The notes under the pieces are model-generated. The model saw only the letters and a program-made list of their open reading frames with translations, was not told the origin of the DNA and made no database searches. Both the position numbers and the translations under genes were made by a program. DNA of 64,000 nucleotides from a virus (taxonomy: Duplodnaviria; Caudoviricetes), in IMG/VR virus record IMGVR_UViG_3300050156_000143, positions 213,517 to 277,516 of that record; one strand, 5' to 3'. Shown here piece after piece: positions 40,237 through 42,758 of this stretch (position 1 is the first letter of the stretch; each line of letters starts with the position of its first letter).

Positions 40237-40437
40237 GTGGACGAATCGAGACTGGCCGATATTTTGAGAGGATTTTCTATTGGAGACCGGGTGCAAGTTG
40301 GTGAATATGGGGTTGGGACTATTATACAGATAACCAATAACCTCTATCTTGTTAGATACATAGATAAACCATGTTGGTGGACTTTTCCATATTGGAATCA
40401 TGTCAGCAAATTGACCCATTATTATGAGCCACAATGA
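40237..40437 (+). CDS. small SH3/KOW-like protein, LRG-leader family copy 1
   Basis: MDESRLADILRGFSIGDRVQV. Confidence 0.65.
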   Translation: MDESRLADILRGFSIGDRVQVGEYGVGTIIQITNNLYLVRYIDKPCWWTFPYWNHVSKLTHYYEPQ

Positions 40438-40900
40438 CCAAACTGTTTGGTATCACGGTACTTACCACGATTTTGAACAATTTGATTTGAAATTTACTGG
40501 CCAACGTGGCATGAAGTCTTGTGCGATTTGGTTCACATCATCACCCCAGGTGGCAAGTGATTATGCCATGTGTGGGTATTCTGATAAGGTGTTTGATGAC
40601 GATGCTGTGAAACATCGTTATATCAAAATGGGCGGTAACGTTAGGCAATGTTTGCTCACCTTGTCTCGACCAATGGTTTTAGATGCGGGCGGGGCACTGT
40701 GGACACGTGTTCCTTTTGCTGACCAGTATGGCACCCCCCAGATAAAGACTATCGCTGAGTGCAGCGAATGTGCTAGACTGGTGGGACACGATTCGATGAT
40801 CGTTGAAAACGTTGTGGATGTTTCTACGGGTGGGAAGAAAATTGCTAGCACAGTGGCAGCAGTGTTTTCCCACACTTTGATAACCAGTTTGTATGAATGA
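40424..40900 (+). CDS. ADP-ribosyltransferase-like (ART-PolyVal-type) protein, paralog
   Basis: YHGT, IWFTSSP.VAS.YA, GGNVRQCLL, NVVD, VAAVF. Confidence 0.65.
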   Translation: MSHNDQTVWYHGTYHDFEQFDLKFTGQRGMKSCAIWFTSSPQVASDYAMCGYSDKVFDDDAVKHRYIKMGGNVRQCLLTLSRPMVLDAGGALWTRVPFADQYGTPQIKTIAECSECARLVGHDSMIVENVVDVSTGGKKIASTVAAVFSHTLITSLYE

Positions 40901-40913
40901 GGGGTTATGTCAA

Positions 40914-41132
40914 ATGGACGAATGTGATTTGGCTGATATGTTAATTGGTTCGTTTCAACGAGGTGACCTGGTGAGTGCTCACGGTGTTGTTGGAACATTC
41001 CTGTGGTATTCTGTTAGCGGCAAAGATGCCTATATTGAGTTCAAAATTCAGGATGGGCCGATAACCCATCAATATAGATATATCCCAATTTCATCGGTTA
41101 AACGTGTTTGGGGAAATGATGCACAAATTTGA
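40914..41132 (+). CDS. LRG-leader family copy 2
   Basis: MDECDLADMLIGSFQRGDLV. Confidence 0.6.
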   Translation: MDECDLADMLIGSFQRGDLVSAHGVVGTFLWYSVSGKDAYIEFKIQDGPITHQYRYIPISSVKRVWGNDAQI

Positions 41133-41472
41133 ACCACAAGATGTTATTCAGGTTGTTCCCACTTTGGAATCTCCCTGTGATGCCTTTATTGGCGAGTTTG
41201 TGGGATACAGTGACGATGATTCTGGTAACACGGTCGTCTTAATTGTGGCGAATGGTGTTCAACACGGTGTTCCACCAGAGTGGTGTACGTATTTCGGGAG
41301 AGTTTTCAAAGTATGGATTATTGAGAGTGAATTGGGATATGGCCAGAAGGTAGTCGAGACCAAAACATTCAATTCTCGATTGCTGGCCGACCAGTTTGTG
41401 AAGCAGTTTAATTCAGAGAATTGCGAAGACTCTGTGCCAGATTGGTACATGTATGCCGAGGTGGTGGAATGA
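41116..41472 (+). CDS. SH3-like protein without leader, fused to a C-terminal module
   Basis: KFEPQDVIQV; C-terminal E.GYGQKV..F...N....VPDWY module. Confidence 0.6.
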   Translation: MMHKFEPQDVIQVVPTLESPCDAFIGEFVGYSDDDSGNTVVLIVANGVQHGVPPEWCTYFGRVFKVWIIESELGYGQKVVETKTFNSRLLADQFVKQFNSENCEDSVPDWYMYAEVVE

Positions 41473-41732
41473 CCGATGTAGACAATTTGATTCGCACTTT
41501 GCGAGGCGATTTTCAACCGGGTGATATGGTTAACATCGTTTCCGTCCCATTCGCTCGGTATGAATACTATTCGGTTGGGGAGTGTGGTGAAATACGGTTC
41601 CTGGAAGACTACGGTGGTGTGAAGTTCGCATTCGTACACCGGTTTTCTCGACATCATTCTTCTTATCTGCCCGACAACGTGTATGTGCGTGTTCAGGACT
41701 TGATTTACTATTATGGGGATAACGATGTCTGA
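41469..41732 (+). CDS. LRG-leader family copy 3
   Basis: MTDVDNLIRTLRGDFQPGDMVNI. Confidence 0.62.
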   Translation: MTDVDNLIRTLRGDFQPGDMVNIVSVPFARYEYYSVGECGEIRFLEDYGGVKFAFVHRFSRHHSSYLPDNVYVRVQDLIYYYGDNDV

Positions 41733-41961
41733 AAGTGATATTGCCGATGTACTGAGAGGTGGGTTCCAGATTGGGGATTATGTTGTGGTCAATCATGATT
41801 TCGAGCAATGCGGAGCACAAGAGATTGGGCGTGTTGATAGTACCACATTGGACGAATCTGGCGTTTCTTGTGTCGTTGTGCGTGTGGAGATCGCTGGCGG
41901 TTCGTATTGGAGTTATTCGATGCCCACTTCAAACTTGAGTTATTATTACCGGGATAATTGA
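41725..41961 (+). CDS. LRG-leader family copy 4
   Basis: MSESDIADVLRGGFQIGDYVVV. Confidence 0.65.
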   Translation: MSESDIADVLRGGFQIGDYVVVNHDFEQCGAQEIGRVDSTTLDESGVSCVVVRVEIAGGSYWSYSMPTSNLSYYYRDN

Positions 41962-41962
41962 T

Positions 41963-42190
41963 ATGGACGATTTAGAAATTGCTAGCATTTTGAGAGGGCC
42001 GTTCTCAGGCGGTGATTGGGTCAGGGTGAAGCAGGGAATACGCCACGGGGACATTGGCCAGATTGTCGGCCCGCGAGTAGGTCGATTTCACTATTGGGTT
42101 CGTTTCCAACGCAATCCAAAAATTATCAAAAATTATGGTGGGCATCGATCCATCGAATTTGGAGTATTACTATCCAGACACCCAAATTGA
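41963..42190 (+). CDS. LRG-leader family copy 5 (KOW-like)
   Basis: MDDLEIASILRGPFSGGDWVRVKQGIRHGDIGQI. Confidence 0.65.
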   Translation: MDDLEIASILRGPFSGGDWVRVKQGIRHGDIGQIVGPRVGRFHYWVRFQRNPKIIKNYGGHRSIEFGVLLSRHPN

Positions 42191-42198
42191 ACAAAAAA

Positions 42199-42480
42199 AT
42201 GACTAGCATGTATTTTACAATTTCGCCGTCAACCGGGGAGACCATCCTTGACCACACGACCGACGATATCGATGAACAATTTGCTGCAACTGTGAGCAAA
42301 GCGGTTGGTTCATTTTTGTCTAACCATAAAACCAGCGTGGAATACCAAACCATGACACCTGCTGCTTATGCTGAGTTCTTGGATGGAGAATATGGAATCA
42401 CATACTGCGACACTGGTGTGTTGGTGGACTGTGACGACCCATCTTTTGGTAATTTCGTGGAAAGGTTTGGGAAACCATGA
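42199..42480 (+). CDS. hypothetical protein
   Basis: Packed ORF, ATG 42199. Confidence 0.55.
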   Translation: MTSMYFTISPSTGETILDHTTDDIDEQFAATVSKAVGSFLSNHKTSVEYQTMTPAAYAEFLDGEYGITYCDTGVLVDCDDPSFGNFVERFGKP

Positions 42481-42758
42481 CAGAACATTCTGAAGTCTAT
42501 ATTGCAAGCCAACTTCGAGGATTTGTTCAGGGTGATCAAGTTGAGTTTGTTGATCTTCCATCGGGGATGCTAAGTGATATGGCGGTGCAGGGCGTGTACC
42601 ACGATGAAGGTGATCTAGCCTTAACTGGTCGGTTGTGGTCGGAATATCAACGTCTTTCGCATGTGGGGGCTGGGACAACTTTGTTTATGCGGAACCGAGT
42701 TTGGGAATATATCACGTATTGGCGTGATCCCGTGGATGTGCAACACGTTTACGAATAG
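42477..42758 (+). CDS. LRG-leader family copy 6
   Basis: MTEHSEVYIASQLRGFVQGDQVEF. Confidence 0.6.
   Translation: MTEHSEVYIASQLRGFVQGDQVEFVDLPSGMLSDMAVQGVYHDEGDLALTGRLWSEYQRLSHVGAGTTLFMRNRVWEYITYWRDPVDVQHVYE

Follow-up and report, generated by a model that had tools for sequence, protein, structure and literature searches.

The 277,516-bp genome of an uncultured T4-type jumbo phage from leaf litter carries a family of about 41 paralogs (42 HMM matches in 41 genes) that are distributed over at least six regions and make up some 4% of the 277.5 kb. We give a little better than an even chance to the view that these proteins form a lineage-specific, pre-late panel of diversified KOW/SH3-like protein binders on a constant scaffold, a function to which fold, diversification pattern and neighbourhood point. 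An earlier note on this DNA had proposed that a constant leader docks variable barrels onto one phage hub; for the array described here, the main outcome is that this docking-tag-plus-hub reading is so far without support.

Organization of the family

The window, i.e. the 64,000-nt stretch of the genome on which the note was written, holds six of the approximately 41 copies, the other 35 being located elsewhere, so that the array is not the local feature it had been taken for. The six leader-bearing ORFs described previously are all present on the plus strand and are recovered by the family HMM (E 4e-9 to 6e-20). They and their neighbours are as follows:

39585..40166 (+): ART-PolyVal gene A, 193 aa; PF18760 E 4e-19, 70.2 bits against a cut-off of 31.2; context gene, not a member
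40195..40214 (+): terminator-like hairpin with T-run, in the ART-A/member 1 spacer (consensus scan, sequence context)
40237..40437 (+): family member 1, 66 aa, GTG start; HMM E 1.6e-14
40424..40900 (+): ART-PolyVal gene B, 158 aa; PF18760 E 1.7e-9, 39.0 bits against a cut-off of 31.2
40914..41132 (+): family member 2, 72 aa; HMM E 5e-9, model positions 1–52
41116..41472 (+): non-family ORF, 118–122 aa (start 41104 or 41116); HMM 7 bits
41469..41732 (+): family member 3, 87 aa; HMM E 6e-20; ATGA overlap with the upstream ORF
41725..41961 (+): family member 4, 78 aa, pI 4.1; HMM E 3e-18
41963..42190 (+): family member 5, 75 aa; HMM E 2e-9, positions 1–45
42199..42480 (+): unrelated small ORF inside the array, 93 aa; HMM -0.5 bits
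42477..42758 (+): family member 6, 93 aa; HMM E 4e-9, positions 2–84

The stem of the hairpin contains TGCTATGAT, a putative extended -10-like element. When the regions preceding the arrays were screened with a simple extended -10 search for a common early promoter, no consistent pattern emerged. Strains differ in the spacer between ART-A and member 1, where 10 nt are inserted after 40167 and 2 nt are lost at 40228/9. Member 1 is the shortest copy, has a near-canonical KOW hairpin and is preceded by a G-rich Shine-Dalgarno (SD) sequence; its GTG start is ATG in leaf-litter variants (runs X2–X5). Colinear variants of the array are present in DNA contigs of independent leaf-litter metagenomes. 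ART-B is placed between two family genes, with its ATG located inside the codons for YYE in member 1 and its C-terminus ending in SLYE. Member 2 has LIG in place of LRG, an ITHQY motif followed by an 18-residue extension, and the SD sequence GAGGGG 10 nt upstream. Members 3 and 4 overlap by 8 nt, and the YYGD codons of the former provide the SD sequence GGGGA of the latter. Member 5 is atypical in that it is basic (pI 10.9) and carries a displaced C-terminal motif, IIKNYGG, before a 15-residue extension. Member 6 has a longer leader, MTEHSEVYIASQLRG, and shares an ATGA overlap with 42199..42480, the ORF before it, for which no match was obtained in Pfam or PHROG.

A seventh, leaderless copy that had been suspected at 41116 has to be dropped. 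Besides the HMM score of 7 bits, hhalign gave a probability of 1% over 14 columns, and the AlphaFold single-sequence model has pLDDT values below 50 across residues 1–65. The C-terminal half of this ORF weakly matches phrog_14410 (E 3e-4); apart from this, no match below E 5e-4 was found in PHROGs, and none was clear for the family.

Family proteins are tiny (66–105 aa) and mostly acidic, with a pI below 6 in 32 of 40 members and a median of 4.96 versus 6.08 for other small ORFs. They are encoded by stand-alone ORFs, the exception being a single two-domain fusion that retains the leader at an internal position. For 20 of 40 members the next gene is another member, nine of these pairs overlapping by 8 nt, and about half of the members thus lie in overlapping, translationally coupled arrays. 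Inspection of the junctions revealed SD-like purine runs within the tail codons, and open frames and SD sites are kept in all copies. The window array is part of the neck/tail module; most copies are found in non-structural regions, and the arrays are accompanied by accessory genes for RtcB, NADAR, Pth2, PhoH, ART and Nudix proteins. In the star-like family tree, copies from the window do not group as one clade. Local junction repeats of 50–160 nt with 82–92% identity occur within the 46–56-kb cluster.

Constant ends and variable cores

Both terminal motifs that had been read from the window, a shared leader and L..YY ends, reappeared in the family-wide column profile, the former as M-D/S/T-E-x-D-[LI]-A-x-[LI]-L-R-G-x-F-x-x-G-D-x-V and the latter as L-x-[HY]-Y-Y. 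Conservation reaches 97% for L10, 87% for F14, 95% each for G17 and D18, 90% for V20 and 64% for W73, and the hydrophobic stripe of the N-terminal helix is conserved in all copies. By contrast, entropy exceeds 3 bits in the middle columns. Comparison with a 91%-identical relative gave dN values of 0.188 for cores and 0.083 for ends, and ω values of 0.44 and 0.16, respectively; cores hence evolve about twice as fast as ends. Column entropies and dN agree on hypervariable cores between constant ends, as originally described. Compared with flanking genes (0.02–0.22), ω is elevated in family genes (0.20–0.48); it is below 1 overall and gives no evidence of positive selection.

Judged from codon usage, conservation in the family is at the protein level and not at that of the DNA because synonymous codon identity in conserved columns (0.41) is close to the codon-usage expectation (0.39). 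The DNA similarity of the leaders noticed earlier does exist, but it contains nothing beyond amino-acid conservation and codon usage. Gene conversion as its cause was ruled out family-wide on the same grounds.

Relationship to KOW and other SH3-like domains

The AlphaFold model of member 3 (pLDDT 86) consists of a helix (residues 2–12) and five strands forming an SH3-like β-barrel; for residues 1–10 the pLDDT is only 74. The family profile matched Spt5 KOW2-3 in the PDB at E 1.7e-5, and remote homology to KOW (PF00467, Spt5-NusG type) is therefore likely, membership in the Pfam family not being established. Spt5 and NusG KOW domains are the closest solved relatives, and Foldseek and VIA-align both favoured KOW/SH3 over Sm proteins, with no Foldseek match against the PDB at E ≤0.001. 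Model, structural matches and profile alignment agree with the SH3/KOW-like barrels postulated before. At the level of Pfam, no member reached any cut-off (best KOW score 17.5 bits for member 5 versus 22.3), and only 2 of 39 members matched KOW at E <0.05. Sub-threshold matches were to KOW, KOW5_SPT5, PcrA Tudor and CarD RID.

Several features set the family apart from known domains of this fold. Spt5/NusG KOW domains (PF00467, PF23290; PDB 4ytl, 2xhc, 5ohq) are NGN-fused or ribosomal; neither context was found for the phage proteins, which are stand-alone, acidic and equipped with an extra acidic N-terminal helix. In most phage copies a long variable insert replaces the tight β1-β2 hairpin of KOW. 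The Mind bomb REP/SH3_15 and CPH domains (PF18346, PF11515; 4tse, 2juf, HERC2 9l8y) lack a leader and are repeated in tandem along a single long cellular protein, whereas the phage has one barrel per gene except in the two-domain fusion. SH3_15 repeat proteins were matched by the family profile over the barrel only, starting at profile position ~16; one member matched SH3_15 at E 0.0023, and none exceeded the Pfam cut-off. DUF4314, DUF4926 and YorP of Bacillus subtilis SPβ (2heq) are likewise small SH3-like phage proteins to which no function is assigned. However, they are single-copy, do not share leader or tail, and showed no significant sequence relation to the family.

Structural matches mostly begin at model residue 12–15, which is why we regard the first helix as an addition to the common fold that could have a role separate from the barrel. 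The view opposed to a docking tag, namely that the leader is merely the first helix of a known domain, holds in part: its L-R-x-F portion aligns with the segment directly before β1 of Spt5 KOW domains.

A proposed constant scaffold with diversified loops

Each cassette would comprise four parts: an amphipathic N-terminal helix with an acidic start and a hydrophobic [LIV]-A-x-x-L-L face; the KOW-type segment L-R-x-F-x-x-G-D-x-V leading into strand 1; a hypervariable middle in which the β1-β2 loop differs widely in length and strands 2–4 vary; and a conserved final strand, W...L-x-H-Y-Y. Because the two terminal strands of an SH3-like barrel lie side by side, the conserved strands 1 and 5 are predicted to form, together with the likewise conserved helix, a single constant scaffold or face. 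For the same reason the leader most likely belongs to the domain itself and is not a detachable tag; its first ~8 acidic residues may have a docking role. The diversified part would correspond to the loops through which KOW domains touch their partners. The tail codons (YY-E/G-D/E) of one cassette often appear to encode the SD sequence of the next, with 8-nt or ATGA overlaps.

The nearest upstream TAAATA late promoter is at least 855 nt away from every member, compared with 46 genomic TAAATA sites that have a start codon 3–6 nt downstream. With the absence of a 6-nt motif serving as a sequence proxy, early or middle expression and a cytoplasmic location are probable for the family. We propose that the panel supplies stoichiometric binders or inhibitors of variable host factors and, like its neighbours RtcB, NADAR, Pth2, PhoH, ART and Nudix, may act in host takeover or counter-defence.

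Distribution

The family is restricted to the leaf-litter phage and its nearest kin. In a close relative one cassette is missing exactly at a junction, and no member is present in PA5oct, Atu_ph07, G002, G003 and 80 further relatives (844 kb). In the closest of these 80, the neck gene is directly followed by that for dNMP kinase. The family is, by this comparison of gene order and content, a lineage-specific insertion. Nothing was matched by tblastn of one member against 50,697 phage records or by megablast of the array region. A word-indexed search of 5.8 billion proteins returned only the genome's own proteins, and short full-length matches of an exhaustive profile search were all own-genome or near-identical proteins. 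A degenerate leader DNA pattern gave four single matches in IMG/VR, none confirmed by the HMM, and alignment-derived peptide patterns detected no relatives in metagenome and viral contigs. ART-A was not found in metagenome contigs, and PADLOC yielded a single match at chance level.

Alternative explanations

Given that the nearest solved structures are KOW domains of Spt5 and NusG, and that the sub-threshold Pfam matches are all to RNAP-associated barrels, the family might bind nucleic acid or the transcription/translation machinery, for example as NusG/Spt5-KOW mimics competing for RNAP, Rho, S10 or RNA. The RNA-repair and translation neighbours RtcB and Pth2 would fit as well. We nevertheless hold this to be unlikely: acidity of 32 of 40 members is contrary to direct nucleic-acid binding, few conserved targets would not need forty hypervariable copies, and variation falls exactly in the partner-binding loops of KOW.

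Slightly less probable is a role of the helix in homo- or hetero-oligomerization, by which paralogs would form mixed multimers of the Sm/Hfq or coiled-coil type. Sm proteins consist of an N-terminal helix and a five-stranded bent sheet, an architecture that the model also fits. A hydrophobic stripe kept in all copies and translational coupling, which should yield near-equal amounts of neighbouring copies, are compatible with this idea. Yet the structural comparisons prefer KOW/SH3 to Sm. A homodimer prediction for member 3 with the family alignment scored 0.00, which speaks neither for nor against oligomerization.

The docking tag of the earlier note, with ClpA/ClpB-like unfoldase or ART-PolyVal as hub for a library of host-target adaptors, we judge to be about as improbable as oligomerization. 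Besides 28 of the 40 members, a leader-only pattern picked up just one spurious ORF and no credible non-family protein, so that the leader is not seen on other cargo; in the fused member it is internal. The ARTs are doubtful hubs since profile iteration from the two ART-PolyVal genes of the window found no further ones in the genome, as against 41 members with 35 of them elsewhere. ClpA is no better a candidate: the ClpA/ClpB-like ATPase gene (window positions 2521–4755) is a conserved clade gene retained in four relatives devoid of the family, PA5oct, Atu_ph07 and two of 342–345 kb. Moreover, the L-R-x-F half of the leader belongs to the KOW flank, and co-conservation of the C-terminus with the leader fits a structural clasp.

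Largely neutral or selfish amplification, in which overlapping conserved junctions promote unequal recombination and copies lack distinct functions, is a still weaker candidate. The cassette missing exactly at a junction, the star-like tree with dispersed window copies and the higher dS of family genes (0.24–0.69 versus 0.08–0.36 for most flanking genes) would agree with it; the dS values suggest allele or cassette exchange. Against neutrality, however, key residues are kept in 87–97% of copies despite randomized synonymous sites, ω differs between ends and cores, and every copy retains its open frame and SD site.

It is tempting, if rather far-fetched, to speculate that the ~41 KOW/SH3-like modules dock via constant helix and C-terminal clasp on one phage machine, such as the ClpA-like unfoldase, and so deliver host proteins for unfolding, degradation or modification. 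If true, this repertoire would serve the virus as an adaptor library, comparable to the F-box or ankyrin expansions of eukaryotic viruses, and could capture a wide range of host proteins with defence or housekeeping roles. T4 internal proteins and the adaptors SspB, ClpS and HspQ follow the same logic of a constant short peptide and a variable or substrate-binding body; unlike what such adaptors would imply, the family is not co-distributed with the ClpA-like gene.

That the family is injected capsid cargo with a T4-type capsid-targeting leader is hardly credible: although T4 internal proteins combine a short constant N-terminal targeting peptide with variable bodies and the window array lies in the neck/tail module, the phage proteins have neither a late promoter nor a conserved L/I-x-E prohead-protease site after the helix (positions 11–13 are R/L-G-G/P/D, with no conserved Glu in the column profile), TAAATA distances, a sequence proxy, do not indicate T4-type late expression with head genes, translation is SD-dependent and coupled, and most copies reside in non-structural regions.

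Significance

In giant eukaryotic viruses, big lineage-specific expansions of small binding domains are a hallmark of arms races. Such expansions are barely documented in phages, and the zinc ribbons of Bacillus phage G with ~35 copies (Iyer et al. 2021, PMC7824862) represent the one comparable case that we found in the literature. In both cases a single jumbo phage genome contains a very large, lineage-specific set of copies of one small domain; fold and phage group differ, and a cassette/junction architecture was not described for phage G. The leaf-litter phage provides a clear example of a cassette in which the codons for the protein tail also serve as ribosome-binding site for the gene that follows. 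Its KOW/SH3-like barrel is a compact scaffold for engineered binders, and 41 hypervariable barrels on a fixed scaffold would constitute a natural library in which to look for new phage-host protein interactions.

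Composition of the family

The 277,516-bp IMG/VR virus record whose final 64 kb form the window originates from leaf litter and carries direct terminal repeats. The source is an uncultured T4-type jumbo phage because its tail sheath is ~44% identical to the sheaths of Pseudomonas phage PA5oct and Agrobacterium phage Atu_ph07. All six leader-bearing ORFs described in the earlier note (at 40237, 40914, 41469, 41725, 41963 and 42477) are present on the plus strand and mutually alignable. They are, however, only six of about 41 paralogs detected when all ORFs of the genome were searched with a sequence pattern and an iterated HMM; a separate six-frame search of the genome yielded 42 family matches.

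Distribution of family copies (genome coordinates, except for the window array)
0.4–5 kb, 19 kb and 26.7 kb: family copies
46.7–56.3 kb, minus strand: 14 family copies
~122 kb: fused two-domain family copy
180.8–188.3 kb: 11 family copies
Window array, plus strand: 6 family copies

The putative 'leaderless' seventh copy (41116–41472) was rejected as it fails every membership test. In this orphan ORF, residues ~66–121 (its C-terminal half) match phrog_14410 weakly (E 3e-4) and are predicted to adopt a separate small beta-beta-alpha-beta domain (pLDDT 55–71).

Fold and constraint

An AlphaFold model based on a 39-sequence alignment (pLDDT 86, pTM 0.72) shows a helix (residues 2–12) followed by five strands. 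Foldseek comparison with the PDB returned weak KOW/SH3-like matches (eL21, Spt5, NusG) and nothing stronger, and comparison with BFVD many small uncharacterised phage proteins. In a profile search of PDB sequences, the top match was Spt5 KOW2-3 (E 1.7e-5), where I-S-T-L-R-K-I-F-E-P-G-D-H-V of Spt5 aligned to a-s-l-L-r-g-d-F-q-v-G-D-k-V of the family. Among 1.84 billion representatives, multi-repeat proteins of the SH3_15/SH3_12/DUF1918 type matched the barrel only (profile positions ~16–76), and there were no short full-length matches beyond the phage's own or near-identical proteins. No member reached a Pfam cut-off or had a clear PHROGs match. The proteins thus constitute a new family in the KOW/SH3-like small-barrel superfamily.

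Across 39 members, the most conserved columns are L10 (97%), F14 (87%), G17 (95%), D18 (95%) and V20 (90%); E3, A7, W73, L79, H81, Y82 and Y83 are semi-conserved, and positions 21–72 are variable (entropy >3 bits, large length differences). Most members are acidic (32/40; median pI 4.96); in the window, 41963 stands apart as basic and has a divergent tail. The DNA similarity previously noticed in the leader does not exceed amino-acid constraint: synonymous codon identity at conserved columns, also checked per column, equals the codon-usage expectation (0.41 versus 0.39), so the constancy reflects protein-level selection rather than recent gene conversion.

The constant leader of the earlier note is a real motif in the six ORFs, but its second half, L-R-x-F, belongs to the KOW flank, and only the acidic first ~8 residues of the helix are family-specific. 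That these residues serve as a docking tag plugging variable barrels into one hub is improbable. An ART hub cannot apply to the other 35 members because profile iteration from the two ART-PolyVal genes of the window revealed no further copy in the genome. The proposed ClpA-like hub, a 744-aa ClpA/ClpB-like double-AAA+ ATPase (2521–4755) in which no Clp_N domain is recognisable at E 1e-4, does not co-distribute with the family: it is kept at 36–49% identity in PA5oct, Atu_ph07 and two uncultured relatives of 342–345 kb, all of which lack the family. Nor was the leader seen on other cargo: a leader-only pattern retrieved 28 of 40 members plus one spurious hydrophobic ORF. It is not confined to the N-terminus either, since the two-domain member (122252–122719 of the genome; 1252–1716 of locus L004), an in-frame fusion of two cassettes reading ...LRHYYEAEY-MNENDVANLLLHGVP... 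(also ...HYYEAEY-MNEND...) at the junction, keeps the leader internally. Finally, N- and C-terminal motifs are conserved together. Strands 1 and 5 adjoin in SH3-like barrels, and joint conservation is compatible with a structural clasp.

Gene organisation and expression

In 20 of 40 cases the next gene is also a family member, nine times with an 8-nt overlap. Conservation of the 'L..YY' tail is in part dual-use because the codons for Y-Y-E/G-D/E (TAT GAG GA or TAT GGG GA) provide the following cassette with its Shine-Dalgarno site. Such coupling connects 41469, 41725 and 41963 in the window, and 41469 and 42477 each have an ATGA overlap with an unrelated upstream ORF. Directly upstream of 40237 lies a terminator-like hairpin (40195–40214) whose stem includes an extended -10-like element, TGCTATGAT; strains differ in the surrounding spacer by indels of 10 nt (after 40167) and 2 nt (G-run at 40228/9).

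The phage's late promoter TAAATA is absent within 855 nt upstream of every family member, whereas a start codon comes 3–6 nt after it at 46 sites in the genome, and we infer that the family is expressed before the late phase.

Distribution and evolution

Searches detected no member of the family in PA5oct, Atu_ph07, the two 342–345-kb relatives (95–99% complete), 844 kb of sequence surrounding the neck gene in 80 IMG/VR relatives, or metagenome and viral contig scans. The ~4-kb gap (39581–43574) between the neck gene (38826–39581) and the dNMP kinase gene (43514–44173) holds two ARTs, six family genes, three orphan ORFs and one Nudix gene. In PA5oct and the two closest IMG/VR relatives the kinase gene directly follows the neck gene, and other relatives carry unrelated inserts of 0–3 kb. 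This variable junction is a hot spot for accessory genes, and the window array is therefore a lineage-specific filling of it. The second ART gene (40424–40900) looks like an insertion between two cassettes. It starts at an ATG embedded in the YYE codons (T-ATG-AG) of the member upstream; its C-terminus (...SLYE) resembles the family tail and precedes the GAGGGG Shine-Dalgarno site of the next member.

Accessory or conflict-type neighbours of the family comprise RtcB, NADAR, Pth2, PhoH, SF2 helicase, HNH, ART-PolyVal and Nudix. Three of these genes lie immediately beside other arrays, so the family is accompanied by ADP-ribose and RNA/tRNA repair functions (locus coordinates):

L003:994–1431, minus strand: NADAR
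L005:515–1771, plus strand: RtcB
L005:9326–9712, plus strand: Pth2

L006, a 91%-identical metagenome contig from another JGI sample, is colinear with the 50–55-kb cluster except that a single cassette is missing, with the break falling exactly on the conserved junction (L006:4987–5147 versus genome 49560–49899). Between the two, family genes show dN of 0.05–0.23 and omega of 0.20–0.48, values that do not support positive selection, versus omega of 0.02–0.22 for flanking genes; dN is 0.188 in cores and 0.083 in ends. The exact absence of a cassette, together with family-gene dS raised much above most neighbours, hints at cassette or allele exchange. The paralog tree is star-like (median tip length 1.26), and the six window copies do not form one clade. 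Colinear variants of the window array (~96% identity) occur in independent leaf-litter runs, with ATG as the start at 40237.

The nearest documented phage parallel is the ~35-copy zinc-ribbon expansion of Bacillus phage G (PMC7824862). We propose that these small acidic KOW/SH3-like barrels make up a lineage-specific panel, probably pre-late and translationally coupled. Helix, strand 1 and strand 5 would form a constant scaffold, and the loops by which KOW domains contact partners would be diversified. We hold this structural and evolutionary description with high confidence; more tentatively, the panel may represent a repertoire that stoichiometrically binds or inhibits variable host factors.
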